DNA of 64,000 nt from Escherichia coli (GCF_965641715.1 NZ_OZ282453.1); one strand, 5' to 3'. Positions 2,974 to 35,100 are shown, counted from the stretch's first letter. Notes: generated by a model not told the origin, from the letters alone. Made by a program: numbers and translations.

Positions 2974-4491
2974 TTATTGTTCTACGGCCATCAGACGTCG
3001 GTATTCATCCCACGCATAGAGGTCGGTCATACCGCTGATATAATCCTGCAGCAGGCGGCAACGGTAATAATATTCCCATAGCGGAAACTCAGGAGAATCT
3101 GACGGTAATTTACTGACAGCCTCGACATAGGCCAGCCGATGGCGCGTCGAGAGTTTGTGGAATAAGCGCGATTCAATAGGGAAACGTTTCACCCGTTCTT
3201 TTTCTACCAGTTCAGTAAAGTCTGATAACGACAGGCTTAATAAAGGACGATAAATCTCTAATAATCCGCTAATGACCCGATAGCCCTGCAATTCAAGCTG
3301 CTCGACATCTGGATGGCTAAACACATGTTTTACAGCGACATTTTTATATAGCTTAAGAAGATCGCTGCATTCGCTGGCATCTTCCAATAATGCATGATTA
3401 AACGTTCCGGCGAAAATCGCAGGCAGATTATCAATAAATCGTTGTGCCGCGTAGGGTACCAGTTTATTTAGGGTGTTTACCCGTAAATACATAAAAAACT
3501 GATCTTCCGTACTGCGGCTTAAACTATTTGAGCGTGATTTTTCCCAGGCATTTTCAACCACCAGCGAAAAGAGCGAACCTTTCTCATGCTGGCCCCACGC
3601 CTCGTGCAAATGATGATAAAGCTGCTCAACGGTAAATATTCTTTTCTCTACCGCATCTTCAAGATCTGCCACACAATAGGAGATGTCGTCGGCAGCTTCC
3701 ATAATCCACGTTAATGGAAAACGACTGTAAAGCGCCAAATTAAGTTCTTTACGCAACCGGGCAATATAGGCTTCTTCAGAAAGATAATAACCCGGCTTTT
3801 TCATTAAATAGTGATGTGTCTCAGGCGTTTCGCCACGCCACCACGCTGGACGGGTATATTTTAAAATACCGCCAACCTGCGCCCAGGTGAGATTCATCCG
3901 CATCAATGTATGCACCAGACGAATGCCTTGTGCATTCCCCTCAAAATGACATAAGTCCTGACGAATCTTGCGCCGCAGCTCGTTAAGCGGTTCTTCCCCG
4001 TCCCGTAAACGTAGTGCCGCCACGCTGCAGCGATCGTCAGTCAGAGGCTGGCTTTCGGCATCTTCCGGGTGCAAACGTTGGCGAAACCAGTCATTTATCG
4101 CCGCTTCGCCAAAATGACCAAACGGCGGATTGCCGATATCGTGCATCAGGCATGACATCTCAACAATGCTTTCAAAAGGTCCGGTCAGTTCATCCAGGCC
4201 GTATGCTTCCAGTAATTTAAGCTCTTTCAGACGGCTTAAAATTTCTTTGGCGATGTAGCGCCCCACCTGCTGGACTTCCATCGAGTGGGTAAGACGCGTG
4301 CGCACGGCGGCATTGCGCTCCAGTGGAAAAACCTGGGTCTTTTGTTGCAGACGACGAATTGCCGGAGAGTTGATGATACGCCCGCGATCGCTCTCGAAGA
4401 TCCGCAGGATCTCATGTTCGGTTTTAACGCCCTGCGGTGAACGGTAACGACGATGCCAGTTTATTTTTTTTCGGAAATCAATCTGTGCCAT
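2974..4491 (-). CDS. dgt: dGTP triphosphohydrolase
   Basis: 505 aa; N-terminus [23 protein letters not shown]-domain motifs. Confidence 0.95.
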
Positions 4492-4574
4492 GTCCTCTCC
4501 CGCGTGAGAAATACGCTTCCCCGTAAGCGCATGGTAAACTATGCCTTCAAATCGGGCTTATCGCGAGTAAATCT

Positions 4575-7199: not shown

Positions 7200-8639
<1,440 letters not shown>

Positions 8640-8845
8640 TCATACAAATAAGATGACGGCATTTTACTCGCACGTTCCATGAAAATCCTTTGCAAAGCGT
8701 AATGTTTCAAATGCACAAAACTTTTATACTCTAAGAAATCAGGATTGCACCAGTACAAGCAGCCTGATGTTTGACGAGTATTTAACTTGTTATGAATAAC
8801 ATAGAATAGCAGCCATTCACTTTTTCTACGAATCAGGAACCCTCC

Positions 8846-10126
8846 ATGAGTAAGTCTGAAAATCTTTACAGCGCAGCGCGCGAGCTGATCCCTGGCGGTG
8901 TGAACTCCCCTGTTCGCGCCTTTACTGGCGTGGGCGGCACTCCACTGTTTATCGAAAAAGCGGACGGCGCTTATCTGTACGATGTTGATGGCAAAGCCTA
9001 TATCGATTATGTCGGTTCCTGGGGGCCGATGGTGCTGGGCCATAACCATCCGGCGATCCGCAATGCCGTGATTGAAGCCGCCGAGCGTGGTTTAAGCTTT
9101 GGTGCACCAACCGAAATGGAAGTGAAAATGGCGCAACTGGTGACCGAACTGGTCCCGACCATGGATATGGTGCGCATGGTGAACTCCGGCACTGAAGCGA
9201 CAATGAGCGCCATCCGCCTGGCCCGTGGTTTTACCGGTCGCGACAAAATTATTAAATTTGAAGGTTGTTACCACGGTCACGCTGACTGCCTGCTGGTGAA
9301 AGCCGGTTCTGGCGCACTCACGTTAGGCCAGCCAAACTCGCCGGGCGTTCCGGCAGATTTCGCCAAACATACCTTAACCTGTACTTATAACGATCTGGCT
9401 TCTGTACGCGCCGCGTTTGAGCAATACCCGCAAGAGATTGCCTGTATTATCGTCGAGCCGGTGGCAGGCAATATGAACTGTGTTCCACCGCTGCCAGACT
9501 TCCTGCCAGGTCTGCGCGCGCTGTGCGACGAATTTGGCGCGTTGCTGATCATCGATGAAGTGATGACCGGTTTCCGCGTAGCGCTAGCTGGCGCACAGGA
9601 TTATTACGGTGTGGAACCGGATCTCACTTGCCTGGGCAAAATCATCGGCGGTGGAATGCCGGTAGGCGCATTCGGTGGTCGTCGTGATGTAATGGATGCG
9701 CTGGCCCCGACGGGTCCGGTCTATCAGGCGGGTACGCTTTCCGGTAACCCGATTGCGATGGCAGCCGGTTTCGCCTGTCTGAATGAAGTCGCGCAGCCGG
9801 GCGTTCACGAAACGCTGGATGAGCTGACAACACGTCTGGCAGAAGGTCTGCTGGAAGCGGCAGAAGAAGCCGGAATTCCGCTGGTGGTAAACCACGTTGG
9901 CGGCATGTTCGGTATTTTCTTTACCGACGCCGAGTCCGTGACGTGCTATCAGGATGTGATGGCCTGTGACGTCGAGCGTTTTAAGCGTTTCTTCCATATG
10001 ATGCTGGATGAAGGTGTTTACCTGGCACCGTCAGCGTTTGAAGCGGGCTTTATGTCTGTGGCGCACAGCATGGAAGATATCAATAACACCATCGATGCTG
10101 CACGTCGGGTGTTTGCGAAGTTGTGA
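8846..10126 (+). CDS. hemL: Glutamate-1-semialdehyde 2,1-aminomutase
   Basis: 426 aa; [26 protein letters not shown]. Confidence 0.95.
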
Positions 10127-13877: not shown

Positions 13878-15387
13878 TTAGAAACGGAAGGTTGCGGTTG
13901 CAACGACCTGACGTTCTGCGCCCCAGAAGCAGCCATAAGTGTTAAAGCAGCTGGCGACGTATTCACGATCGAACAGGTTGTTGACATGCAGCGCCACGTT
14001 GGAGCCCGCCATGCCGACTCGCGCCAGATCATAACGCACTAACGCATCCACGACCGTATAACTTCCCACTTTAAAGGAGTTAGCCGGATCACCATAGCTG
14101 GAGCCAGTATAACGACCACCGGTGCCCAGCGTCAGACCTGAAAGCGGACCGTCAAAGAAGGTATAGTCAGCCCACAGCGAAGCCATGTGTTTTGGCACCT
14201 GTGCCGGCGTATTGCCTTTATAGGTAGTATCGGTGGTGTATTCCGCATCGGTGTAAGTATAAGAACCGACTACGTTAACACTCGCCGACAGCGCCGCTTT
14301 CGCTTCGATTTCTACGCCACGTGCGCGGATCTCGCCACCTTCAACCGAGAAGAAGGAACCCTCAGGGTCCGCCATCAGGTTGTTGGTTTTAGTGAGATTA
14401 TACACGGCACCAGTAACTACAATCGGACGATCTTCCGGTACATATTTCACGCCGACTTCATACTGCTTACCTTTAGACGGTGCGAAAATATTACCATCCT
14501 TCCCAACTTGCGAAGAAGGTTCAAACGATTCGCTATAGCTGAAGTAAGGTGTTACGCCATTATCAAACAGGTAGTTAACACCACCACGCCAGGTAAACTG
14601 TTTGTCATCGCGTTTATCGGTCGTCGCGGCAACGCGGTTAAGAGATTCTTGATCTGCCCAGTCGTAACGACCGCCCAGGGTGACCAGCACTTTATCCCAC
14701 TGCGCCTGATCCTGAACATAAACGCCCGTTTGTTTCTGCTTATTCAGAATGCGGTAAGGGCCGGAGTTTGCCGGATCTTTGGCATTGAAGTCGAAATCGG
14801 TATTCACCGGATTGTACAGATCGAGCAGCGGTACGGAGTCGTCGTAACCAAACCAAGCGTTGATGTCATTACGCATACGCATAAAGTCGACACCGGTCAG
14901 CAGGGTGTGGTCGATATCGCCAGTGGCAAACTTGCTCTGCAACTGGGTATCAACGGAGAAGTTTTGCAGCTTCTCATCATCAACGACGTATTTACGTGCC
15001 AGATAATGGCCTTTATCCGCTGGCGCTAATGCCGCACACTGTTTGCTGTAAGCATTCGCCGGATCGGAGCAGACGCCGTAACCATAAACGCTGTTTTGCG
15101 AGGTTTTGTTTTCAGCAAAGCGCAGGTTCTGACGCACAGTAAAGGTGTCGTTAAATTCGTGATCGAAGCTGTAGCCCACCATCTTCTCATTACGAGAATA
15201 GGTGTTGTTCTTCGCCCCTTCGTTAAAGTCTGTCGGCAGACGCTTACCGTTCGGCAGCGGCTCAACGGTTCCCTCTTTCGGCAACCAGCCGTAATAACCC
15301 GTTTCCGATGCCGCTAACCGCTGTGGCTACTACAACTGCGATTTTACGCAGTGAGTGTTTTGGCTGAGCAGTTTTGGAACGCGCCAT
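13878..15387 (-). pseudogene. fhuA: fhuA (ferrichrome receptor; phage T1/T5/phi80 receptor) with internal 734-bp frameshifting deletion
   Basis: ATG at 15387 encodes MARSKTAQPKHSLRKIAVVVATAVSG, then joins directly (junction 15307/15308) to ...ETGYYGWLPKEGTVEPL in another frame; the C-terminal 468 codons (ORF 13878..15284) are intact to ATFRF-stop; expected gene is about 2.24 kb but only 1510 bp are present. Confidence 0.85.
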
Positions 15388-22779: not shown

Positions 22780-23685
22780 TTCAAAGAGATGACAGACACA
22801 CACTATATTGGCCGCTTCGCCCCCTCTCCTTCCGGCGAGCTTCATTTTGGTTCTCTGATTGCTGCGCTTGGCAGCTATTTGCAGGCTCGCGCCCGGCAAG
22901 GTCGCTGGCTGGTACGCATAGAAGATATCGACCCGCCTCGTGAAGTTCCCGGTGCCGCAGAAACTATCCTGCGCCAGCTGGAACATTACGGCCTGCACTG
23001 GGACGGCGATGTTCTCTGGCAATCGCAACGTCACCACGCCTATCGCGAAGCACTCGCCTGGTTACATGAGCAAGGACTAAGTTATTACTGCACCTGCACG
23101 CGTGCACGTATTCAAAGCATTGGCGGTATTTACGACGGCCATTGCCGGGAATTGCATCATGGACCAGGCAACGCCGCAGTGCGTATCCGCCAGCAGCATC
23201 CGGTCACCCAGTTTACTGACCTGCTGCGCGGCATTATTCACGCCGACGAAAAACTGGCACGGGAAGATTTTATTATTCATCGCCGTGATGGTTTGTTTGC
23301 CTATAACCTGGCGGTGGTGGTCGATGATCACTTCCAGGGCGTGAGCGAAATTGTCCGCGGGGCAGATTTGATCGAACCGACAGTGCGGCAAATCTCGCTG
23401 TACCAGCTTTTTGGCTGGAAAGTGCCAGATTACATTCATCTGCCGCTGGCGCTTAATCCACAAGGCGCTAAACTTTCCAAGCAGAATCATGCGCCTGCGT
23501 TGCCGAAAGGCGATCCACGCCCGGTACTAATCGCGGCACTTCAATTTCTGGGGCAGCAGGCAGAAGCACACTGGCAGGATTTCAGCGTCGAGCAAATCCT
23601 TCAGTCAGCCGTCAAAAACTGGCGGCTTACCGCAGTGCCTGAGTCGGCAATTGTAAATTCAACATTCTCAAATGCGTCATGCTGA
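22759..23685 (+). CDS. gluQ: Glutamyl-Q tRNA(Asp) synthetase
   Basis: 308 aa; class I aaRS HIGR-like motif ([19 protein letters not shown]) and KLSK motif. Confidence 0.9.
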
Positions 23686-23744: not shown

Positions 23745-25142
23745 ATTTTTACCCGAGTCGCTAATTTTTGCCGCAAGGTGCTAAGCCGCGAGGAAAGCGA
23801 GGCTGAACAGGCAGTCGCCCGTCCACAGGTGACGGTGATCCCGCGTGAGCAGCATGCTATTTCCCGCAAAGATATCAGTGAAAATGCCCTGAAGGTAATG
23901 TACAGGCTCAATAAAGCGGGATACGAAGCCTGGCTGGTTGGCGGCGGCGTGCGCGACCTGTTACTTGGCAAAAAGCCGAAAGACTTTGACGTAACCACTA
24001 ACGCCACGCCTGAGCAGGTGCGCAAACTGTTCCGTAACTGCCGCCTGGTGGGTCGCCGTTTCCGTCTGGCTCATGTGATGTTTGGCCCAGAGATTATCGA
24101 AGTTGCGACCTTCCGTGGACACCACGAAGGTAACGTCAGCGACCGCACGACCTCCCAACGCGGGCAAAACGGCATGTTGCTGCGCGACAACATTTTCGGC
24201 TCCATCGAAGAAGACGCCCAGCGCCGCGATTTCACTATCAACAGCCTGTATTACAGCGTAGCGGATTTTACCGTCCGTGATTACGTTGGCGGTATGAAGG
24301 ATCTGAAGGACGGCGTTATCCGTCTGATTGGTAACCCGGAAACGCGCTACCGTGAAGATCCGGTACGTATGCTGCGCGCGGTACGTTTTGCCGCCAAATT
24401 GGGTATGCGCATCAGCCCGGAAACCGCAGAACCGATCCCTCGCCTCGCTACCCTGCTGAACGATATCCCACCGGCACGCCTGTTTGAAGAATCGCTTAAA
24501 CTGCTACAAGCGGGCTACGGTTACGAAACCTATAAGCTGCTGTGTGAATATCATCTGTTCCAGCCACTGTTCCCGACCATTACCCGCTACTTCACGGAAA
24601 ATGGCGACAGCCCGATGGAGCGGATCATTGAGCAGGTACTGAAGAACACCGATACGCGTATTCATAACGATATGCGCGTTAACCCGGCGTTTTTGTTTGC
24701 CGCCATGTTCTGGTACCCACTGCTGGAGACGGCACAGAAGATCGCCCAGGAAAGCGGCCTGACCTATCACGACGCTTTCGCGCTGGCGATGAACGACGTG
24801 CTGGACGAAGCCTGCCGTTCACTGGCAATCCCGAAACGTCTGACGACGTTAACCCGCGATATCTGGCAGTTGCAGTTGCGTATGTCCCGACGTCAGGGTA
24901 AACGTGCATGGAAACTGCTGGAGCATCCTAAGTTCCGTGCGGCTTATGACCTGTTGGCCTTGCGAGCTGAAGTTGAACGTAACGCTGAACTGCAGCGTCT
25001 GGTGAAATGGTGGGGTGAGTTCCAGGTTTCCGCGCCACCAGACCAAAAAGGGATGCTCAACGAGCTGGATGAAGAACCGTCACCGCGTCGCCGTACTCGT
25101 CGTCCACGCAAACGCGCACCGCGTCGTGAGGGTACCGCATGA
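23745..25142 (+). CDS. pcnB: Poly(A) polymerase I, non-AUG (ATT) start
   Basis: ORF track opens at TTG 23724; the known product begins at ATT 23745 ([19 protein letters not shown]); no in-frame ATG upstream of the catalytic domain. Confidence 0.85.
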
Positions 25143-25618
25143 CAGTGGCGTATATTGCCATAGGCAGCAATCTGGCCTCTCCGCTGGAGCAGGTCAATGC
25201 TGCCCTGAAAGCATTAGGCGATATCCCTGAAAGCCACATTCTTACCGTTTCTTCGTTTTACCGCACCCCACCGCTGGGGCCGCAAGATCAACCCGATTAC
25301 TTAAACGCAGCCGTGGCGCTGGAAACCTCTCTTGCACCTGAAGAGCTACTCAATCACACACAGCGTATTGAATTGCAGCAAGGTCGCGTCCGTAAAGCTG
25401 AACGCTGGGGACCGCGCACGCTGGATCTCGACATCATGCTGTTTGGTAATGAAGTGATAAATACTGAACGACTGACCGTACCGCACTACGATATGAAAAA
25501 TCGTGGATTTATGCTGTGGCCGCTGTTTGAAATCGCGCCAGAGTTGGTGTTTCCTGATGGGGAAACATTACGTGAAATACTCACTTCACTAGCAGTACCA
25601 CAACCTGCCATCTGGTAA
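25139..25618 (+). CDS. folK: 2-amino-4-hydroxy-6-hydroxymethyldihydropteridine pyrophosphokinase (HPPK)
   Basis: 159 aa; [26 protein letters not shown]; overlaps pcnB stop (ATGA); last ~17 residues differ from the K-12 sequence I recall. Confidence 0.9.
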
Positions 25619-25960
25619 TAGCTGTATTATTTTATTTTCTTGACGAGAGGAATACAAAATGATACGGCTATTTCATCCACCAAGAAAAAATTATTTTCTT
25701 ATCTTACTCCTCACATCCCCCCTTACACATTAAATATACTTAATTTACATTTTAGTTTTTTTTAATTCATTCATGAAATAGCATTTCATGCAAATAGATT
25801 AGGCATTTTTTGTTTAAACGACCTAAAATAACAACAATTCAATACGCCACATAAATATATTCACACCCGTGATAATTCACCCCTATTACATCCTCCAAAA
25901 ACTTTGAGTAATATCCGCTCGCAATATTAATTTCATATAATTTTTGTAAGGATGCATGTA

Positions 25961-26557
25961 ATGAAAAAAGCACTTCTCGCAGCCGCTCTGGTTATGGCTT
26001 CTGGTTCCGCCCTGGCTGTAGATGGTGGTCATATCGACTTTAACGGTATGGTACAGTCCGGTACCTGTAAAGTGGGTGTGGTAGATACTGGTATGCACAG
26101 CGTTACCACTGATGGCGTGGTTACCCTGGATACTGCGAATGTTACTGATACTTTTGCTGAAGTTAGCGCAACTGCTGTCGGTTTACTGCCGAAAGAGTTC
26201 ATGATTTCTGTTGAGTGTGATCCAGGTGCTCCGAAGAATGCTGAGTTAACTATGGGTTCTGCAAGCTACGCGAACACCAGCGGTACCCTGAATAACAATA
26301 TGAACATCACTGTTAACGGTATTGCACCGGCTCAGAACGTAAACATTGCAGTTCATAACATGAAAAACAAAGCTGGCGCTGCTGAAATTAAGCAGGTCCA
26401 TATGAACAACTCTTCTGAAGTTCAGGAACTGACATTAGACGCAGAAGGTAAAGGCCAGTACGTATTTAACGCATCTTACGTTAAAGCACCGAACAGCCCG
26501 GCTGTAACTGCTGGTCATGTAACCACTAACGCGCTGTACACCATTGCTTATAAGTAA
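25961..26557 (+). CDS. yadN: Fimbrial major subunit (YadN-position allele, divergent from K-12)
   Basis: signal peptide MKKALLAAALVMASGSALA, conserved Cys pair, C-terminal YTIAYK beta-strand motif; RBS aagga 8 nt upstream of ATG 25961. Confidence 0.8.
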   Translation: MKKALLAAALVMASGSALAVDGGHIDFNGMVQSGTCKVGVVDTGMHSVTTDGVVTLDTANVTDTFAEVSATAVGLLPKEFMISVECDPGAPKNAELTMGSASYANTSGTLNNNMNITVNGIAPAQNVNIAVHNMKNKAGAAEIKQVHMNNSSEVQELTLDAEGKGQYVFNASYVKAPNSPAVTAGHVTTNALYTIAYK

Positions 26558-26643
26558 TTGATGGTGTGTTGAGCATAAGGTTTGCCAGCAGGCAAACCTT
26601 ATTTTCGCGAATTTAATCTTTCTACAGACAGCAAGGAGTGCTT

Positions 26644-27369
26644 ATGTTTCCCTTGGTTAAAAAAACGGTTAGTGCATTATTTGTGAGTACTCTGTTAGCC
26701 AGTGCACCAGCATTCGCTGACATTATTATTTCCGGAACACGTATCATTTATAACGCTGATAAAAAAGATGTTAACGTTCGTCTGGAAAATAAAGGGAATC
26801 GCCCCTTACTGATTCAGAACTGGTTGGATACTGGCGACGACAATGCCGATCCCAGCCAGATCAAAGTGCCGTTTACCGCGACCCCACCAGTTTCACGCGT
26901 GGAGCCAAAACGCGGTCAAACCGTAAAAGTGATGTATACCGGTGCAACAGCCCTGCCGAAAGACCGTGAAAGCGTCTACTGGTTTAACGTGCTGGAAGTG
27001 CCGCCTAAGCCGAAAGATGCTGAGGCTGACAAAAACTTGTTACAGCTGGCTTTCCGCACACGCATCAAACTCTTTTATCGCCCGAGTGGGTTACAGGGAG
27101 AACCGGCTGAAGCACCGGCGAAAATCACCTGGAAATTAAACAACGCTCAGTTACAGGCAAATAACCCAACGCCATATTACGTGTCCTTTAATGAGGTCAA
27201 GCTGGAAAGCGGCGGCAAAACCTACAACGTCAATTCCAGCATGGTCGCGCCGTTCAGCCAGGCAAGCTTTGGCGTAACCGGTCTGCCAGGAAGCGTGTCA
27301 TCCGGAAAAGTGGTTTTTAAAGCGATCAACGACTTTGGCGGCAACATTGATGGTTCCGCAACATTCTAA
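26644..27369 (+). CDS. yadV: Periplasmic fimbrial chaperone (PapD-like; YadV/EcpD position)
   Basis: IISGTRIIYNADKKDVNVRLENKGNRPLLIQNWLD chaperone motif; RBS aaggag before ATG 26644. Confidence 0.85.
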   Translation: MFPLVKKTVSALFVSTLLASAPAFADIIISGTRIIYNADKKDVNVRLENKGNRPLLIQNWLDTGDDNADPSQIKVPFTATPPVSRVEPKRGQTVKVMYTGATALPKDRESVYWFNVLEVPPKPKDAEADKNLLQLAFRTRIKLFYRPSGLQGEPAEAPAKITWKLNNAQLQANNPTPYYVSFNEVKLESGGKTYNVNSSMVAPFSQASFGVTGLPGSVSSGKVVFKAINDFGGNIDGSATF

Positions 27370-27410
27370 AAAATAAACGGATTCTTTTTAACATCGCCAG
27401 GAATGCAACC

Positions 27411-30011
27411 TTGTACCAGTTTACTCATCAAAAAAGCCGTATCCCGAAAAAAACGCTACTTGCGGCCTGTTGCGCCCTTTTTTACAGCGGCAACAGTTCT
27501 GCGGCGGACACCGTGGAATATGACAGTTCCTTCTTAATGGGAACTGGCGCATCAACGATTGATGTTAAACGTTATGCTCAAGGCAACCCGACACCGCCGG
27601 GTCTCTATAATGTCCGCGTGTTTGTAAACGGCCAGCCCACGTCCAGCTTAGAAATTCCGTTTGTGGATATTGGCGAAAACAGCGCAGCGGCCTGTATTAC
27701 CCACAAAAACCTGGCACAACTTCACATTAAGCAACCTGAACAGCCTGTCACTTTACTCGCCAGAGAAGGTGAGGAAGAGGATTGTCTGGATTTGGCAAAG
27801 TCATACGAAAAGGCGGATGTGCGCTTTGACGGTAGTGACCAGTTTCTCGATCTGACGATCCCTCAGGCCTATGTTTTGAAAAGCTATGGCGGCTACGTTG
27901 ACCCTTCTTTATGGGAATCGGGAATTAACGCTGCCACACTGGCATATACCCTGAACGCGTATCACACAAGTTCAGATAACGATAATAGTGACAGCGTCTA
28001 TGGCGCATTTAACTCGGGTATCAATTTAGGAGCCTGGCACTTCCGTGCGCGCGGTAACTATAACTGGACAACAGATAACGGCAGCGATTTCGATTTCCAG
28101 GATCGTTACTTACAGCGTGACATTCCGGCAATCCGTTCACAGATAATTATGGGTGACGCCTACACCACCGGTGAAACGTTTGACTCTGTCAACGTCCGTG
28201 GTGTTCGCCTGTACAGCGATAGCCGTATGCTACCTTCGGCGCTGGCCAGTTACGCCCCGACCATCCGCGGTGTAGCAAACTCCAACGCCAAAGTTACGGT
28301 GACGCAGAACGGTTATAAAATCTATGAAACTACCGTTCCACCCGGTGAATTTGTTATAGACGACATTAGCCCCTCCGGCTTTGGTAGCGAACTGGTCGTA
28401 ACCATTGAAGAAGCGGATGGTTCCAAACGCACCTTTACGCAACCCTTCTCGTCGGTTGTGCAAATGCAACGTCCTGGTGTAGGTCGTTGGGATTTCAGTG
28501 CCGGTAAAGTCATTGATGATAGCCTGCGTTCCGAACCCAATATGGGGCAAGCCTCTTATTACTATGGTCTGAATAACCTCTTCACGGGTTATACCGGCAT
28601 TCAGTTCACCGATAACAACTATCTTGCCGGGCTGTTAGGTGTGGGTATCAACACCAGCATCGGCGCCTTTGCGGTAGACGTTACCCATTCTCGCGCTGAG
28701 ATTCCGGATGATAAAACTTACCAGGGGCAAAGTTATCGCGTGACCTGGAACAAATTATTCCAGGATACCGGGACATCATTTAACCTCGCGGCGTACCGCT
28801 ATTCCACCCAGGATTATCTGGGCCTGCATGATGCGTTAGTCCTCATTGACGACGCCAAACATTTGTCTGCCGATGAAGACAAAAACACCATGCAGACGTA
28901 CTCACGTATGAAAAACCAGTTTACCGTCAGCATCAACCAGCCGCTGAAAACGACTTACGAAGATTACGGTTCACTGTTTATTTCCGGTAGCTGGACGGAT
29001 TACTGGGCGGCGAACAATAGCCGCACTGAATATAATGTTGGTTACAGTAAAAGCGTTTCGTGGGGCAGTTTCAGCGTCAACCTGCAACGTAGCTGGAATG
29101 AAGACGGCGAGAAAGATGACGCGATGTACGTCAGCGTTAGCGTACCTATTGAGAATATTTTAGGTGGCAAACGCAAATCTTCTGGTTTCCGCAATTTAAA
29201 TACTCAGCTCAATACCGATTTCGATGGTTCACATCAGTTGAATGTTAACAGTTCCGGTAACACTGAAAACAATCTGGTGAACTACAGTGTCAACGCAGGT
29301 TATAGCCTCGATAAAAACTCCGGCGATTTAGCCTCTGTTGGTGGTTATCTCAACTATGAATCAGGGTTAGGCGGTATTTCCGCTTCGGCCTCGGCCACTT
29401 CTGATAATAGCCAGCAGTACTCCATCTCCACCGATGGCGGCTTTGTATTACACAGTGGTGGTTTAACGTTCACTAACAACAGTTTCAGCAGTAACGACAC
29501 ACTGGTGTTAATCAACGCCCCAGGTGCTAAAGGCGCACGAATCAATAACAGTAATAACGAAATCGATCGCTGGGGATATGCCGTGACATCTTCTGTCAGC
29601 CCCTACCGTGAAAACCGGGTAGGTCTGAACATTGAAACACTGGAAAACGATGTTGAACTGAAAAGTACCAGCGCCACCACCGTACCACGCAGCGGCTCCG
29701 TTGTTTTGACCCGTTTCGAAACTGACGAGGGGCGTTCTGCCGTGCTGAATATTACTGCCGCCAATGGCAAATCTATTCCGTTTGCTGCGGAGGTTTACCA
29801 GGGTGAGGTGATGATCGGCAGCATGGGCCAGGGTGGTCAGGCATTTGTGCGCGGTATTAACGACAGCGGGGAATTAACAGTGCGTTGGTATGAAAACAAC
29901 CAAACCATTGACTGTAAGTTGCACTACCAGTTCCCAGCCCAGCCACAAACGCTGGGAAGTACCAACACCTTATTACTTAACAATCTTACCTGTCAGGTAG
30001 CAAATCACTAA
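27411..30011 (+). CDS. htrE: Outer membrane fimbrial usher (HtrE position)
   Basis: 866 aa; usher motifs (YNVRVFVNGQ, RGVRLYSDSRMLP, TVPPGEFVIDDISPSGFGSELVVTIEEADGSKRTF); start codon uncertain (TTG at 27411). Confidence 0.85.
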   Translation: MYQFTHQKSRIPKKTLLAACCALFYSGNSSAADTVEYDSSFLMGTGASTIDVKRYAQGNPTPPGLYNVRVFVNGQPTSSLEIPFVDIGENSAAACITHKNLAQLHIKQPEQPVTLLAREGEEEDCLDLAKSYEKADVRFDGSDQFLDLTIPQAYVLKSYGGYVDPSLWESGINAATLAYTLNAYHTSSDNDNSDSVYGAFNSGINLGAWHFRARGNYNWTTDNGSDFDFQDRYLQRDIPAIRSQIIMGDAYTTGETFDSVNVRGVRLYSDSRMLPSALASYAPTIRGVANSNAKVTVTQNGYKIYETTVPPGEFVIDDISPSGFGSELVVTIEEADGSKRTFTQPFSSVVQMQRPGVGRWDFSAGKVIDDSLRSEPNMGQASYYYGLNNLFTGYTGIQFTDNNYLAGLLGVGINTSIGAFAVDVTHSRAEIPDDKTYQGQSYRVTWNKLFQDTGTSFNLAAYRYSTQDYLGLHDALVLIDDAKHLSADEDKNTMQTYSRMKNQFTVSINQPLKTTYEDYGSLFISGSWTDYWAANNSRTEYNVGYSKSVSWGSFSVNLQRSWNEDGEKDDAMYVSVSVPIENILGGKRKSSGFRNLNTQLNTDFDGSHQLNVNSSGNTENNLVNYSVNAGYSLDKNSGDLASVGGYLNYESGLGGISASASATSDNSQQYSISTDGGFVLHSGGLTFTNNSFSSNDTLVLINAPGAKGARINNSNNEIDRWGYAVTSSVSPYRENRVGLNIETLENDVELKSTSATTVPRSGSVVLTRFETDEGRSAVLNITAANGKSIPFAAEVYQGEVMIGSMGQGGQAFVRGINDSGELTVRWYENNQTIDCKLHYQFPAQPQTLGSTNTLLLNNLTCQVANH

Positions 30012-30012
30012 T

Positions 30013-30573
30013 ATGGAAAATTCTATGAAAAGGATACTACTAACATCCGCGTTAATAGGCCTGGGTTTACCGGCGGTTGGCTCTGCAACAGATCTTAATG
30101 TCGATTTTACGGCCACCGTATTAGCCACCACCTGTACGATAACTATCGTACAAGATGGTGGTCCAGTAGTGACGGGTAGCAACGGTGAATATAGCCTGAC
30201 AATTCCCGATGTTGGCCTGGATAAAGTTGTCACTGGAGATGTTGCAGCTCAAGCCAACTTTAAATTAGTGGCTTCCGATTGCAGCAATGGTTATTCAAAG
30301 ATTTTTACCACACTTACAGGAACAACGGTTTCCGGTAAGTTAATTGTTAATGAAACAACCTCTGGCGCTACGGGTGTGGGTATGGGGATTAAGCGTAGAG
30401 ATACCGCAGACTCGGCTTTCTTTACGCCAAATAATACTGACAAATTTGAATGGAGTACCGATGAGAAAGCTAACGGTGTGCCTCTGACCGTAGCACTGCG
30501 CGAAACAACGGCAGGAGCAGGACGCACTGGTGCGTTTCAGGCAAAAGCCACCTTTAACTTCACCTACGAATAA
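30013..30573 (+). CDS. yadM: Fimbrial minor subunit (YadM position)
   Basis: signal peptide then pilin fold, C-terminal FNFTYE; alternative start at 30025. Confidence 0.75.
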   Translation: MENSMKRILLTSALIGLGLPAVGSATDLNVDFTATVLATTCTITIVQDGGPVVTGSNGEYSLTIPDVGLDKVVTGDVAAQANFKLVASDCSNGYSKIFTTLTGTTVSGKLIVNETTSGATGVGMGIKRRDTADSAFFTPNNTDKFEWSTDEKANGVPLTVALRETTAGAGRTGAFQAKATFNFTYE

Positions 30574-30587
30574 CAGGGACAGCCACC

Positions 30588-31199
30588 ATGAAATTAAAAG
30601 TCATAGCTACACTGATTGCTACTGTTGCCGTGGGTGCCAGCGTTAGCAACAATCTCACTTATGCGAGTACGACATCCGCCTCTTTAACCGTAAACAGTAA
30701 CCTGACTATGGGTACCTGTAGTGCGAAGGTAGTGGATACCAGTGGTGCCGTGATCGACACCGTTGTCTTGGGCAATGTTTATATTTCTGAACTGGCAGCC
30801 AAAAGCAAGGTGCAACCATTTAAAATCCGCTTCAGCGATTGTGCCGGGCTTCCAGGAAAGAGTGCTCAACTCGTCTTAGCGCCCAAAAACAACGGTTGCG
30901 CAGGAGGCATGTCTGACACTGCCGCCTTTTCAAATAAACTCAACACCACCACCGATGGTGGTTCAAGCAGAGCAGCAGTCGAAGTATGGACGACTACAAG
31001 CCCCGAAGGAACTGGCAGTGAGCAATTCAATTGTTATCAGCGAAACGTCATCAATGTCGATCTTTCTAATGCCAGCACAACACAGCCTTATGATTTCGAT
31101 TTAAGCGCGCGAATGATTATCGCTGGCGGGTGGACAGTCAATGACGTATTACCGGGTAGATTCCTCTCTCCTACGACTTTCACAATCACTTATCAGTAA
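30588..31199 (+). CDS. yadL: Fimbrial minor subunit (YadL position)
   Basis: signal peptide MKLKVIATLIATVAVGASV; C-terminal FTITYQ. Confidence 0.75.
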   Translation: MKLKVIATLIATVAVGASVSNNLTYASTTSASLTVNSNLTMGTCSAKVVDTSGAVIDTVVLGNVYISELAAKSKVQPFKIRFSDCAGLPGKSAQLVLAPKNNGCAGGMSDTAAFSNKLNTTTDGGSSRAAVEVWTTTSPEGTGSEQFNCYQRNVINVDLSNASTTQPYDFDLSARMIIAGGWTVNDVLPGRFLSPTTFTITYQ

Positions 31200-31219
31200 T
31201 AGCGGATAAGGATATTAGA

Positions 31220-31810
31220 ATGCTATGCAGGCATCATAAATTTGTACGTTTTTTGGGGCTGGCAACAGCCCTCATTACGCCTTTTGCCTATGCTGGCCAG
31301 GATGTGGATCTCACGGCGCAGATTGTGGCCAGCACCTGTCAGGTGGAAGTCAGTAATAATGGCGTTGTCGATCTCGGCACAGTGACGCTGGACTATTTTG
31401 CTGACAATGTGACCCCAACGACGGATTACGCGGGTGGCAAAACGTTTAATGTTAATGTGGTCTCTTGCGATAACATTCAAACGACACAGTCGCAAATGAA
31501 ATTAGATTTTCAGCCGCAGGCGGGATCGCTTGCACAGGTGAATAATCAAATTTTTAGTAATGAATACGAACAGCAGGCTACCGGGGCGAAAAACGTCGGC
31601 ATTGTGATATTTTCGGCCCAACCGAATCAGCAGACATTTAACGTGCGAGGAACAGATGGTTCCTCAGCAGCAATTTATTCGGTCGCGCCTGGCAATGCTG
31701 TTCCCTCAACCTGGACCTTTTATTCCCGTATGCAGCGGGTGAATAATGCCCTTCCTCCTGAATCGGGAATGGTGAGAAGCCAGGTTATTGTTAACGTATC
31801 TTACGAATAA
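31220..31810 (+). CDS. yadK: Fimbrial minor subunit (YadK position)
   Basis: signal peptide, C-terminal VNVSYE; RBS aaggat 6 nt upstream. Confidence 0.75.
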   Translation: MLCRHHKFVRFLGLATALITPFAYAGQDVDLTAQIVASTCQVEVSNNGVVDLGTVTLDYFADNVTPTTDYAGGKTFNVNVVSCDNIQTTQSQMKLDFQPQAGSLAQVNNQIFSNEYEQQATGAKNVGIVIFSAQPNQQTFNVRGTDGSSAAIYSVAPGNAVPSTWTFYSRMQRVNNALPPESGMVRSQVIVNVSYE

Positions 31811-31821
31811 TAAGGATAATT

Positions 31822-32934
31822 ATGCAAAGGAAAGGCAATAGACTGTTGATTCAGTTATGCAGTGCGATACTGCTATTTTTTACCACATCCTGGTATGCAT
31901 TGGCGAATGAATGTTATATAGAGAGAAATGCTGAAGGGCCTTATGATATGGTGATAAACCCAAAGCCCTTCAGTATACAGTCAGCGATGGTCACAGTCCC
32001 GGAAGAAATAGGCTTCGCGTCCTGGGATTCTCATATTGATCTTCGGGGCGATAAGATTGGTTGTAAATCCTTAGGTAGTGACACAAGCTCAGTGCATTTT
32101 CTTAATACTGCTGATGCCAGCCTCTTATCAACCTATACTACCAACCATGGCGGTGCTTTATTGAAAACAACCGTTCCCGGTATTGTTTATTCAGTAGAAT
32201 TATTATGTACAAGTTGTGGAGCCGCGGACGAACTTGCTTTGCTTCTTCCTGCGCAAAGTGGTGCAGATAATCATACAGATAACGCCAGCTCAAAGTGGGC
32301 CTATGAATATAGTGACGATAGCTGGTATTTACGGTTTCGTTTTTACTGGACCCCGGAATTTAAACCTCAAAATGGGGTTTCAGAAGGAACTGCGATGCCA
32401 GGTAAAATAGCTTCCTGGTATATAGGCAATAATGACCAACCATGGATAAATTTTTTCGTTGATACAAGCTCCGTTCATTTTTACGTTGACGAACCGACCT
32501 GTGCAACAGTTGCCCTCGCACAAGATAAGGGCAACGTCAGTGGCAACCAGGTAACGCTTGGGAACAGCTATGTTTCGGAAGTGAAAAATGGGCTTACGCG
32601 GGAAATCCCTTTTTCTATCCGTGCTGAATACTGCTATGCCAGTAAAATTACGGTTAAGTTGAAAGCGGCAAATAAACCCAGCGATGCCACACTGGTGGGT
32701 AAAACGACTGGCTCTGCTTCAGGCGTGGCTGTAAAAGTAAATTCAACTTATGACAATAGCAAAGTATTGTTAAAAGCAGATGGTAGCAACACGGTTGACT
32801 ATAACTTCGCCGTCTGGTCAAACAACCTGCTGCTTTTACCTTTTACGGCGCAGCTGGTACCGGATGGCAGTGGTGCTGCTGTCGGTGTTGGAACCTTCTC
32901 TGGTAACGCGACCTTCTCCTTTACCTACGAATAA
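31822..32934 (+). CDS. yadC: Two-domain fimbrial tip adhesin (YadC position)
   Basis: 370 aa; N-terminal ~200-aa putative lectin domain plus C-terminal pilin domain ending ATFSFTYE; RBS aagga. Confidence 0.75.
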   Translation: MQRKGNRLLIQLCSAILLFFTTSWYALANECYIERNAEGPYDMVINPKPFSIQSAMVTVPEEIGFASWDSHIDLRGDKIGCKSLGSDTSSVHFLNTADASLLSTYTTNHGGALLKTTVPGIVYSVELLCTSCGAADELALLLPAQSGADNHTDNASSKWAYEYSDDSWYLRFRFYWTPEFKPQNGVSEGTAMPGKIASWYIGNNDQPWINFFVDTSSVHFYVDEPTCATVALAQDKGNVSGNQVTLGNSYVSEVKNGLTREIPFSIRAEYCYASKITVKLKAANKPSDATLVGKTTGSASGVAVKVNSTYDNSKVLLKADGSNTVDYNFAVWSNNLLLLPFTAQLVPDGSGAAVGVGTFSGNATFSFTYE

Positions 32935-32957
32935 GTAAAACGTCATTCCTTCCTCAT

Positions 32958-32982
32958 CGCACCAGAGTTCTGCTCTGGTGCG
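32958..32982 (+). terminator. Hairpin 3' of fimbrial operon (cgcaccagag / ctctggtgcg)
   Basis: 10-bp perfect inverted repeat 24 nt past the yadC stop, followed by aacgttttcccc. Confidence 0.55.
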
Positions 32983-33069
32983 AACGTTTTCCCCACACTA
33001 AAAACCATTGCCCCCCTGATTTCGACTGTTAGAATGCGATCAATCTGACTTTAGCTATCAGGATACGTT

Positions 33070-33864
33070 ATGAAACCAACCACCATTGCTTCATTGCAAA
33101 AATGCAAACAGGAAAAAAAACGTTTCGCCACCATCACCGCTTACGACTATAGCTTCGCCAAACTCTTTGCCGATGAAGGACTTAACGTCATGCTGGTAGG
33201 CGACTCGCTGGGCATGACGGTTCAGGGGCACGACTCCACCCTGCCAGTTACCGTTGCTGATATCGCCTACCACACTACCGCCGTACGTCGTGGCGCGCCA
33301 AACTGCCTGCTCTTGGGTGACCTGCCGTTTATGGCGTATGCCACGCCGGAACAAGCCTTTGAAAACGCCGCAACGGTTATGCGTGCCGGTGCTAACATGG
33401 TCAAAATTGAAGGCGGTGAGTGGCTGGTCGAAACCGTAAAAATGCTGACCGAACGTGCCGTTCCTGTATGTGGTCACTTAGGTTTAACCCCACAGTCAGT
33501 GAATATTTTCGGTGGCTACAAAGTTCAGGGACGCGGCGATGAAGCGAGCGATCGACTGCTTAGCGATGCATTAGCCTTAGAAGCCGCTGGTGCACAGTTG
33601 CTGGTGCTGGAATGCGTACCGGTTGAACTGGCAAAACGTATTACCGAAGCACTGGTGATCCCGGTTATTGGCATTGGCGCAGGCAACGTCACTGACGGGC
33701 AGATCCTCGTGATGCACGATGCGTTCGGCATTACCGGCGGCCATATCCCTAAATTTGCCAAAAATTTCCTCGCTGAAACGGGCGACATCCGCGCGGCTGT
33801 GCGGCAGTATATGGCTGAAGTGGAGTCCGGCGTTTATCCGGGCGAAGAACACAGTTTCCATTAA
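33070..33864 (+). CDS. panB: 3-methyl-2-oxobutanoate hydroxymethyltransferase
   Basis: 264 aa; [33 protein letters not shown]. Confidence 0.95.
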
Positions 33865-33875
33865 GGAGTGACGTT

Positions 33876-34727
33876 GTGTTAATTATCGAAACCCTGCCAC
33901 TGCTGCGCCAGCAAATTCGCCGCCTGCGTATGGAAGGCAAGCGCGTGGCGCTGGTACCTACCATGGGCAACCTGCATGATGGCCACATGAAGCTGGTCGA
34001 CGAAGCCAAAGCCCGCGCCGATGTGGTCGTCGTCAGTATTTTCGTTAACCCGATGCAGTTCGACCGCCCGGAGGACCTGGCTCGTTACCCACGCACCTTG
34101 CAGGAAGACTGCGAAAAGCTGAACAAGCGCAAAGTGGATCTGGTTTTCGCGCCCTCGGTAAAAGAGATCTACCCGAACGGTACTGAAACCCATACTTACG
34201 TTGACGTTCCCGGGCTTTCGACCATGCTGGAAGGCGCGAGCCGTCCGGGGCATTTTCGCGGCGTTTCGACTATCGTCAGCAAGCTGTTTAACCTGGTCCA
34301 GCCGGACATCGCCTGCTTCGGTGAAAAGGACTTTCAGCAACTGGCGCTGATCCGCAAAATGGTTGCCGATATGGGCTTTGATATTGAGATTGTCGGTGTG
34401 CCAATTATGCGCGCCAAAGACGGTCTGGCGCTGAGTTCCCGTAATGGTTATCTGACGGCGGAACAACGCAAAATTGCGCCTGGTCTGTACAAGGTTTTAA
34501 GTTCGATTGCCGACAAATTGCAGGCTGGCGAACGGGATCTCGATGAAATTATTGCTATTGCCGGGCAAGAACTGAATGAAAAAGGCTTCCGCGCCGATGA
34601 TATTCAGATTCGCGATGCCGACACATTGCTGGAAGTCTCTGAAACCAGCAAACGAGCTGTGATTCTGGTAGCCGCCTGGCTTGGCGATGCCCGCCTGATA
34701 GACAACAAAATGGTCGAACTGGCGTAA
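33876..34727 (+). CDS. panC: Pantothenate synthetase, GTG start
   Basis: 283 aa; HIGH-type motif [10 protein letters not shown]; RBS aaggag 8 nt before GTG. Confidence 0.95.
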
Positions 34728-34732
34728 TACTT

Positions 34733-34760
34733 AACTGGCGCTACGGCTGATGGCGCCAGT
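34733..34760. terminator. Hairpin 3' of panC (aactggcgc / gcgccagtt) followed by attaatttg
   Basis: 9-bp inverted repeat read directly. Confidence 0.55.
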
Positions 34761-34822
34761 TATTAATTTGCCCTACGTTATGGCGATGACGTCTGTAAGT
34801 GATTATTCATATCGCTGGCAAT

Positions 34823-35032
34823 TTAGTTAGAGTTAATTAGCTTATCAATCTCTGTAAGAGGTAAAGTTGTCACCTCTGCAACGTCTTCCCGAGACATCCC
34901 TTTACTTAGAAAACGCTGGGCGAATTCCTGTCTTACCTTCTGGAGTTCCTCTTGATATCCCTTCTGAAATCCCTTCTCTTCAAACCACTGCGCCAACGTC
35001 TGCCTGGTTTCTCTCCGTGTCTTTATTTCCAT
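34823..35032 (-). CDS. Orphan Rpn C-terminal-domain (RpnS-like) small protein, 69 aa; diverged duplicate of the rpnC tail
   Basis: ORF MEIKTRRETRQTLAQWFEEKGFQKGYQEELQKVRQEFAQRFLSKGMSREDVAEVTTLPLTEIDKLINSN aligns with the last ~50 residues of the adjacent rpnC product; own ATG with aggga SD 5 nt upstream; DNA is a direct repeat of 35101..35266. Confidence 0.6.
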   Translation of the reverse strand: MEIKTRRETRQTLAQWFEEKGFQKGYQEELQKVRQEFAQRFLSKGMSREDVAEVTTLPLTEIDKLINSN

Positions 35033-35100
35033 AGGTTCCCTTAATTATCTGGTCAGTTAACAATAACAATTATCTGGCTATAACTGATGATGCAGACAAC

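Follow-up and report, generated by a model that had tools for sequence, protein, structure and literature searches.

Gene content and layout between folK and panB

The window, i.e., the 64,000-nucleotide stretch of Escherichia coli DNA analyzed here, carries seven chaperone-usher open reading frames (ORFs) on the plus strand, all of which were found to be intact by ORF calling (25961-32934). They are arranged in the order N-V-usher-M-L-K-adhesin and are located between folK and panB, like the yad genes of K-12. The upstream neighbor, folK (25139..25618, plus strand, 159 aa), encodes HPPK; its codons 1-142 are typical of E. coli, while the last 17 codons (~25565-25615) form a variable tail linked to the fimbrial cassette. 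The intergenic region between folK and the first fimbrial gene (25619..25960, plus strand) is AT-rich (~35% GC in the interval 25500-25999) and presumably acts as the operon's promoter and regulatory region. According to the alignment, a 60-bp stretch upstream of the yadN-like gene (~25632-25691) is missing from O157-type genomes. A promoter scan of positions 25500-33200 returned 11 sites, with 12.1 expected from shuffled sequences, and all of them were weak consensus matches.

The first gene (25961..26557) codes for a major fimbrial subunit of 198 aa that resembles YadN and StaA, its start being taken from RefSeq homologues. It is followed by a gene for a periplasmic fimbrial chaperone of 241 aa (26644..27369), whose match to NCBIfam NF007398 (420 bits; cut-off 285) assigns it to the PapD-like YadV/EcpD family, and by a gene for an outer-membrane usher of 866 aa with a TTG start (27411..30011), which matches the equivalog NF007337 over its full length (1564 bits; cut-off 830) and is thus a member of the HtrE/StaC family. 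Three minor subunits are encoded further downstream: a YadM/StaD-like ORF product of 182 aa (30025..30573), a YadL/StaE-like protein of 203 aa (30588..31199) and a YadK-like protein of 196 aa (31220..31810; NF011794, 274 bits; cut-off 132). The best NCBIfam matches of the major and the YadM-like subunit are StaA and StaD, each below its cut-off, and StaE/YadL is the best match of the YadL-like subunit. Three subunits thus resemble the Salmonella Sta system (staA-G); as the scores for the Sta families stay below the equivalog cut-offs, the Sta subunits are to be considered relatives rather than orthologues. In the translations, every subunit ends with the C-terminal Y-x motif. The last gene (31822..32934) encodes a two-domain tip adhesin of 370 aa, in which a signal peptide precedes a receptor-binding domain (aa 29-222; 31906-32487) and a pilin domain (aa 223-370; 32488-32931).

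Downstream of the adhesin stop codon, a strong stem-loop followed by GAACGTTTTCC (32957..32990, plus strand) probably serves as the intrinsic terminator of the operon. RNA folding of positions 32935-33000 yielded -24.4 kcal/mol, corresponding to z = -7.2 relative to shuffled sequences; a consensus terminator scan missed this hairpin because its T-run is short. The right junction zone (32991..33129) comprises intergenic sequence and the first 20 codons of panB (33070-33864), the gene that flanks the cassette on the right.

With its position between folK and panB, the operon falls under the locus-plus-usher definition of Wurpel et al. (2013; PMC3559732), who equated Yad with Sta on the basis of usher phylogeny and locus. 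The region can be regarded, with a probability of close to nine in ten, as a complete and apparently functional Yad/Sta (gamma-4) chaperone-usher fimbrial operon of the allelic class found in O157:H7, O55:H7 and O145:H28 strains. By analogy with the family, the subunits would be exported by Sec, captured by the PapD-like chaperone and polymerized at the usher by donor-strand exchange. The expected product is a thin, flexible fiber of the YadN-like major subunit and the three minor subunits that would carry the two-domain adhesin at its tip, with the N-terminal beta-sandwich domain of the adhesin probably binding the receptor. Fimbria assembly and receptor specificity of this operon are thus predicted by analogy. 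Induced expression of ECs0139-0145 of O157 Sakai was reported to result in thin flexible fimbriae (PMC7098969).

It is improbable that the operon persists as a silent and decaying remnant without present function. Such a state would agree with the AT-rich upstream region, typical of silenced loci, and with the cryptic behavior of yad loci under laboratory conditions (PMC3559732). In addition, the copy of the closest complete genome, the baboon strain A30, is annotated with three pseudogenes, caused by an internal stop and two frameshifts, which means either that decay of the cassette does occur or that the A30 sequence contains errors. The seven ORFs of the window are intact, however, and whole-gene dN/dS values of 0.04-0.28 in comparisons with E1V33 (a non-coli Escherichia sp.), O157 and E. 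albertii are those of genes under purifying selection. Furthermore, the yad genes of O157 are transcribed from native promoters and deletion of the locus alters the expression of 222 genes (PMC11287998).

Divergence from K-12 and membership of the O157:H7 class

The K-12 Yad operon (yadN-yadV-htrE-yadMLKC) shares the folK-panB position, the seven-gene architecture and the gamma-4 usher and chaperone family with the operon of the window. Its proteins are strongly diverged, as had been proposed in an earlier note made from the sequence alone: identities to K-12 MG1655 range from 22 to 61% (YadN 41%, YadV 61%, HtrE 60%, YadM 48%, YadL 41%, YadK 39%, and YadC 22%). The proteins encoded on either side are conserved (FolK 93%, PanB 97%, and PanC 100%), and at the nucleotide level identity to K-12 drops from ~99% to less than 60% at ~25565 and recovers at ~33020-33070. 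Beyond the right edge, the panB nucleotides are 89-95% identical to K-12 and more diverged than usual for core genes of E. coli.

This divergence could in principle have arisen in place, by positive selection on K-12-type genes within E. coli and without any exchange of cassettes. Diversifying selection is well known to act on fimbrial subunits and adhesins, and it is the minor subunits and the adhesin that diverge most. Yet the chaperone and the usher are likewise only ~60% identical to K-12, synonymous sites are saturated between the classes (dS 1-3) at dN/dS values of 0.04-0.28, the boundaries are sharp to within a few bases and the same classes recur in other species and genera. Divergence in place is therefore very improbable.

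The operon is not new but represents the yad locus of the O157:H7/O55:H7/O145 type (Sakai ECs0139-ECs0145; EDL933), which has already been described and studied experimentally and agrees with the operon of the window in locus, gene order and cassette class. The sense of novelty conveyed by the earlier note arose because K-12 was its sole reference. Using at least 90% amino acid identity as the threshold, the usher (98%), the chaperone (99%) and the major subunit (99%) all belong to the O157 class, and the usher gene is 96.4% identical to O157:H7 genomes at the nucleotide level. Identities to O157 are also high for the YadK-like subunit (96%), the YadM-like subunit (92%) and the pilin domain of the adhesin (97%). 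About 420 of 5,426 complete E. coli genomes, including EDL933 and other O157:H7, O55:H7 and O145:H28 strains, encode an usher with at least 90% identity; a third cassette class is present in ~160 further genomes, and in the remaining, i.e., most, genomes the usher gene (htrE) is ~66% identical to that of the window at the nucleotide level. Chance can be dismissed as an explanation, the arrangement being found in hundreds of genomes. Over the 24 kb of the left flank, no complete genome exceeds 99.2% identity to the window.

Within this class, the copy of the window is a rare mosaic, in which an O157-class backbone is combined with an adhesin receptor-binding domain and a YadL segment from another old allele. 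The receptor-binding domain is only 71% identical to that of O157 in amino acids and 73.7% in nucleotides (dS ~2) and hence is a different allele inside the class. The YadL-like subunit shows 66% amino acid identity to O157 overall, and its C-terminal two-thirds (~30768-31196) are recombinant relative to O157: for aa 61-203, dS is ~2.1 in comparison with O157 and 0.13 in comparison with E1V33, and the sliding nucleotide identity to O157 decreases to 57-71% over positions 30700-31200. Both segments, whose divergence from O157 is ancient, are nearly identical to their counterparts in A30 and E1V33. Positive selection was also considered as the cause of the difference between the receptor-binding domain and that of O157 and was rejected, with dN/dS at 0.11 and dS saturated.

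With 370 aa, the adhesin is indeed shorter than K-12 YadC (412 aa), and the suspicion that its receptor-binding domain differs was borne out as well. In a BLASTP comparison with K-12 YadC, the pilin domain alone could be aligned (26% identity) and the N-terminal domain gave no significant match, so that its sequence bears no detectable similarity to the lectin domain of YadC, which binds xylose according to literature cited in PMC13245861. A sequence search of the PDB with the adhesin returned no match at E values up to 1. Fold comparison revealed a resemblance to solved two-domain fimbrial tip adhesins (LpfD, CupB6, MrkD, F17G/GafD, Abp1D, AtfE, and UclD), to which its sequence identity is 7-16%. 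Conclusions on receptors or host range that were drawn for YadC, such as the binding of xylose and annexin A2, should consequently not be transferred to the class of the window.

The divergence also affects how the locus is scored in surveys. PMC13245861 requires at least 80% identity to HtrE over at least 80% of its length. The usher of the window, scored here against K-12 HtrE rather than the EC958 reference itself, reaches 60% amino acid identity, and the locus would therefore count as “Yad-negative.” Where surveys recognize Yad by the identity of the usher to HtrE of K-12 or ExPEC, O157-like and some other lineages are thus marked as Yad-negative despite an intact alternative cassette with a different adhesin head at this very locus. 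The current understanding of chaperone-usher fimbriae is unchanged by this locus; its main value lies in annotation and in the reading of the literature.

Cassette junctions in folK and panB

On the left side, K-12 and the window agree at 97-99% of nucleotides at first, then at 59% and finally at ~40% across positions 25500-25700, with the drop at ~25565, and megablast alignments of ~5,000 E. coli genomes end at positions 25560-25578. Residues 1-142 of FolK are identical to K-12 HPPK (PDB sequence), but 11 of the last 17 differ; the K-12 protein ends in ...PDGEMLRQILHTRAFDKLNKW. The divergent tail of ~17 codons had been quoted correctly in the earlier note, which placed the replaced block at 25560-32982. 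Its left limit agrees with the end of the alignments, while 32982 marks the end of the hairpin and the divergent block in fact continues to ~33020-33070, where identity to K-12 recovers.

The suggestion that a recombination breakpoint lies within the 3' end of folK holds in so far as a boundary exists there. It is not a breakpoint private to this strain, as the junction at ~25565 is common to all three cassette classes of E. coli. In E. albertii, Citrobacter and Pseudocitrobacter, homology ends at the same folK position, and the loss of homology at this point in the latter two genera identifies ~25565 as a shared homology edge. The position is therefore the lasting border of an old polymorphic cassette, and recombination in the flank has homogenized folK up to it. 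Comparisons with E. albertii cover the cassette from its left junction to a point inside the adhesin gene, where the contig stops. The idea that the folK junction is an artifact of assembly or a chimera can draw on the abruptness of the transition only and is practically negligible, given that ~420 independent complete genomes, as well as E1V33, have this gene layout and this junction.

Because the non-homologous block starts at codon 143 of folK, each cassette brings its own C-terminal FolK tail. The tail of the window has a P..W motif in common with those of ECO21, E. albertii, Citrobacter and Pseudocitrobacter, leaving the tail of K-12 as the odd one out. The tail of O157 differs from that of the window at two positions, by a change of P to L and by one extra terminal residue. 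An explicit earlier description of a junction inside folK was not found in the literature on folK, panB and the fimbria. The locus offers a clean and small case of a cassette junction in the coding tail of an essential gene, of interspecies transfer in Escherichia and of adhesin mosaicism at the domain level.

Probable exchange of cassettes between lineages

The window shows dense mismatches to E1V33 as far as 25564 and hardly any thereafter; they remain sparse up to ~33129 and become dense again beyond this point. This pattern indicates cassette junctions at 25565 and ~33080-33129. Synonymous divergence follows the same division, with dS values of 0.30-0.53 in the flanking gluQ, pcnB and folK (codons 1-142) and of 0.06-0.12 in all operon genes except yadN, which is more diverged than the other six (0.23). 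The chaperone and the usher are 100% and 99% identical to those of E1V33 in amino acids. As the flanks are far more diverged than the operon, the cassette is likely to have been exchanged between lineages, and the whole cassette of the window shares recent ancestry with that of E1V33. In O157, positions 25327-25564 of folK are 95.8% identical to E1V33 and 84.5% to other E. coli, so that flank of foreign type extends deeper into the gene than in the window, from ~25327, and the O157 cassette seems to have arrived together with an E1V33-like flank.

More generally, the folK-panB locus is occupied by several anciently diverged, mutually exclusive cassettes, which probably pass from one lineage to another when the conserved sequences on either side undergo homologous recombination. 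Replacement of fimbrial clusters via horizontal transfer has been described for analogous Salmonella loci (Yue et al.; PMC3373541). We consider it an even bet that the locus reflects a very old, cross-genus dimorphism between cassettes with a 370-aa adhesin and those with a YadC-type adhesin of 410 aa, both of which are present in Escherichia and Pseudocitrobacter. The classes would be held apart by the fixed homology edge in folK and reshuffled by introgression, in this case between non-coli Escherichia and E. coli strains resembling phylogroup E, and at each transfer FolK would become a chimera that ends in the tail of the incoming cassette. Under such a dimorphism, the “Yad-negative” phylogroups E and D of the 2026 survey may possess Yad-type cassettes of another kind, whose receptor-binding domains are unrelated and probably directed at other receptors.

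The direction of transfer between lineages would be read from a single non-coli genome, E1V33. A partly overlapping alternative, which disputes the direction alone, holds that the cassette of the window is the ancestral form in Escherichia and was inherited vertically, that most E. coli acquired the K-12 type in its place and that E1V33 received its copy from E. coli. E. albertii, which carries the class of the window with an usher of 90% amino acid identity, shows an usher dS of 0.84, comparable to the values of its flanks (0.42-0.80) and thus compatible with vertical descent; the distribution of the P..W motif, which the K-12 tail lacks, also fits this order of events. On the other hand, the 3' part of the O157 folK resembles E1V33 and no other E. 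coli tested, which points to import from an E1V33-like lineage, and the occurrence of both superclasses in Pseudocitrobacter means that neither is clearly derived. The reversed direction is accordingly a tentative option and less probable than import from an E1V33-like lineage.

The right flank (panB and panC) exhibits no clear transfer signal. Positions 33130-33320 in the panB of O157 are just 86% identical to E1V33, and the panB of E1V33 is 90.4% identical to that of the window (BLAST), and the panC sequences of E1V33 and the window resemble each other unusually closely (96%).

The yad-type operon between folK and panB

The folK-panB interval of the window contains seven ORFs, all intact and in the same orientation (25961-32934). 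Downstream of folK (25139-25618), they encode a major fimbrial subunit (25961-26557), a chaperone (26644-27369), an 866-aa usher (27411-30011), three minor subunits (30025-30573; yadL-like, 30588-31199; YadK-like, 31220-31810) and a 370-aa adhesin (31822-32934), followed by panB (33070-33864). This is the complete yad-type operon that the earlier note had described, and the family matches agree. The usher (NCBIfam NF007337; 1564 bits, cut-off 830), the chaperone (NF007398; 420 bits, cut-off 285) and the YadK-like subunit (NF011794; 274 bits, cut-off 132) pass their thresholds, while the remaining subunits find their best NCBIfam matches in Salmonella StaA, StaD and StaE with scores under the cut-offs. 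In the adhesin, a Pfam Fimbrial domain was identified at aa 225-369 only, and an AlphaFold2 model based on 21 homologues reached a mean pLDDT of 83.6. Because of these matches and the adhesin model, the operon is assigned to the standard Yad/Sta-type (gamma-4) chaperone-usher systems with a two-domain tip adhesin, and its fimbriae would be assembled as in other members of this family. Yad has been classified as core-associated from its locus and usher phylogeny and was equated with Salmonella Sta (Wurpel et al., PMC3559732). A hairpin with a 12-bp stem is located 3' of the adhesin stop codon (-24.4 kcal/mol, z = -7.2), and the GC content is 43-51% in the operon, about 35% in the upstream intergenic window and about 54% in the flanks.

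The operon proteins are unlike those of K-12 MG1655, with amino acid identities of 41% (YadN), 61% (YadV), 60% (HtrE), 48% (YadM), 41% (YadL), 39% (YadK) and 22% (YadC); the flanking FolK, PanB and PanC proteins show 93%, 97% and 100%. The adhesin is shorter than the K-12 YadC protein of 412 aa, and BLASTP aligned the pilin domain alone (26% over 188 aa), with no significant similarity found between the N-terminal domains, in line with the different receptor-binding domain that had been thought possible. FolK matches the crystallised K-12 HPPK exactly through residue 142, whereas 11 of the final 17 residues differ from K-12, which has EMLRQILHTRAFDKLNKW. Sliding-window identity to K-12 falls from 97-99% to 59% and then to about 40% across 25500-25700, placing the boundary in the folK 3' end as proposed, and is regained at about 33020-33070. 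The result is a divergent block from about 25560 to that point, without high K-12 identity across the operon. Some flanking housekeeping genes are themselves unusually distant from K-12 for the E. coli core, namely a gluQRS patch at 23100-23400 (89-94% nucleotide identity) and panB (94%) and panC (95%) at 33070-34700, with dS values of 0.17-0.25. Such divergence would fit hitch-hiking or recombination around the polymorphic fimbrial locus.

Allele classes and mosaic structure

Classification of the usher gene in 5,426 complete E. coli genomes yielded three identity classes. In 420 genomes, O157:H7, O55:H7 and O145:H28 among them, identity to the window is 90% or more; a third cassette class (ECO21; ~156-160 genomes) shows about 76% across the entire gene; in the other genomes, where PGAP names it htrE, identity is about 66%. 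A 2026 survey with an 80% HtrE identity threshold scored Yad as present in 0% of phylogroup E and 5% of phylogroup D (PMC13245861). In the O157, O55 and O145 strains, folK-panB is occupied by an alternative cassette, that of the window class. The O157 locus has already been treated as yad: expression of Sakai ECs0139-0145 produced thin flexible fimbriae (PMC7098969), its native promoters drive transcription, and its deletion alters the expression of 222 genes (PMC11287998). The window operon belongs to this known O157-type allele class, as a rare mosaic sub-variant. Two deep superclasses span genera, one with a 370-aa adhesin (window, O157, ECO21, E. albertii, the non-coli Escherichia sp. E1V33 and one Pseudocitrobacter MAG) and another in which the adhesin has about 410 aa (K-12, P. 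vendiensis, P. faecalis and Citrobacter).

The window operon is 94-100% identical to that of an O157-type genome (L003) outside two segments, the 3' two-thirds of the yadL-like gene (57-71% nucleotide identity) and the adhesin receptor-binding domain (61-73%). By Nei-Gojobori estimates, the receptor-binding domain (71% amino acid identity) has a dS of about 2.0 and a dN/dS of 0.11, and YadL aa 61-203 (62%) a dS of about 2.1 and a dN/dS of 0.13; the adhesin pilin domain (97%) shows 0.11 and 0.14, respectively. Divergence in place under positive selection was rejected as the source of the O157 difference on this pattern. Both segments have a far older history than their surroundings, a pattern of recombinational mosaicism. 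The receptor-binding-domain allele is uncommon in E. coli, with at least 99% identity in a single genome (baboon isolate A30), 95-99% in 26 and 90-95% in 42 (including O145:H28); O157:H7 shows 73.7%. The adhesin family has homologues in E. albertii (77%), E. fergusonii (54%), unclassified Escherichia, one Salmonella and Enterobacter mori.

A30 is also the sole complete genome to reach 99% identity with the window operon. The rest of the operon is almost identical to A30, but a patch of about 500 bp in the usher gene (28650-29150) is 92-96% identical to A30 and 99% to E1V33; it is a small further recombination tract. None of the seven genes is disrupted in the window, whereas the A30 copy (L002) is annotated with three lesions, one stop codon inside the major-subunit gene (3962-4558) and frameshifts in two minor subunits (8026-8575 and 8590-9202), reflecting either decay or sequencing error.

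The folK junction and probable exchange between Escherichia lineages

Megablast alignments of about 5,000 E. coli genomes stop at 25560-25578. The three E. coli classes part from one another at about 25560-25566, and E. albertii, Citrobacter and Pseudocitrobacter lose homology to the window at 25559-25595. The FolK tails of all these groups are different, with the terminal Trp kept throughout and a Pro at -4 or -5 kept in all except K-12. Because classes and genera lose homology at one site and the tails vary, the junction is the fixed boundary of a weakly constrained FolK tail moving with each cassette. A one-off breakpoint is ruled out by the recurrence of this edge in three E. coli classes and other genera. 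In O157-type genomes, folK (L003 3140-3622) has its stop codon changed from TAA to TAT, so that the protein is extended to 160 aa, with PAIWY rather than PAIW at its C-terminus.

Among GTDB species representatives, a scan identified the same cassette in E1V33 (usher 99% identical at the amino acid level) and E. albertii (89% in the scan, 90% in other comparisons); in Pseudocitrobacter and Citrobacter, it detected fimbrial operons in the folK-panB interval. Window and E1V33 are 86-93% identical in the flanks and 95-100% in the operon. Flank dS amounts to 0.30 (gluQ), 0.40 (pcnB) and 0.53 (folK codons 1-142), compared with 0.06-0.12 for the chaperone, usher, three minor subunits and adhesin; yadN shows 0.23. 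At the left junction, mismatches occur every ~8 bases up to 25564, followed by one in 500 bp; at the right junction they are sparse to about 33129 and dense beyond. O157 folK (25327-25564) is 95.8% identical to E1V33 and 84.5% to both K-12 and the window. Therefore, the flank that came with the O157 cassette was E1V33-like. The window strain has regained an E. coli-type flank as far as the edge of the non-homologous block. On the right, the flank carries a mixed signal: O157 panB (33130-33320) is 86% identical to E1V33, and E1V33 panC is 96% identical to the window. E. coli would have acquired the cassette by introgression from an E1V33-like Escherichia lineage, a direction suggested by one donor-like genome, after which the imported flanks would have eroded. 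The shared folK junction, the exchange with non-coli Escherichia and the adhesin domain mosaic are tidy yet conventional for fimbrial loci; in Salmonella, fimbrial clusters are replaced at analogous loci (Yue et al., PMC3373541).

Additional features of the window

In the folK-yadN intergenic region, 60 bp (25632-25691) are present in A30 and E1V33 and missing from O157-type genomes. As this stretch lies within the presumed regulatory region, it could affect operon expression. The panC-rpnC spacer (34728-35100) spans about 370 bp versus 73 bp in K-12, and identity to K-12 and O157 collapses there; annotations of the nearest genomes (A30, ECO21) place a truncated hypothetical gene or an RpnC/YadD-family remnant in it. 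RpnC has 290 aa in the window and 300 aa in K-12. Compared with O157:H7 PV15-279 (L017), fhuA (13878-15310, minus strand) carries a 734-bp internal deletion (L017 15308-16041) with its junction at 15307/15308, by which codons ~27-271 are lost and the frame is shifted, leaving a 468-aa C-terminal ORF. Since phages T1, T5 and phi80, colicin M and albomycin use FhuA as their receptor, this lesion should confer phage and colicin resistance and abolish ferrichrome uptake.
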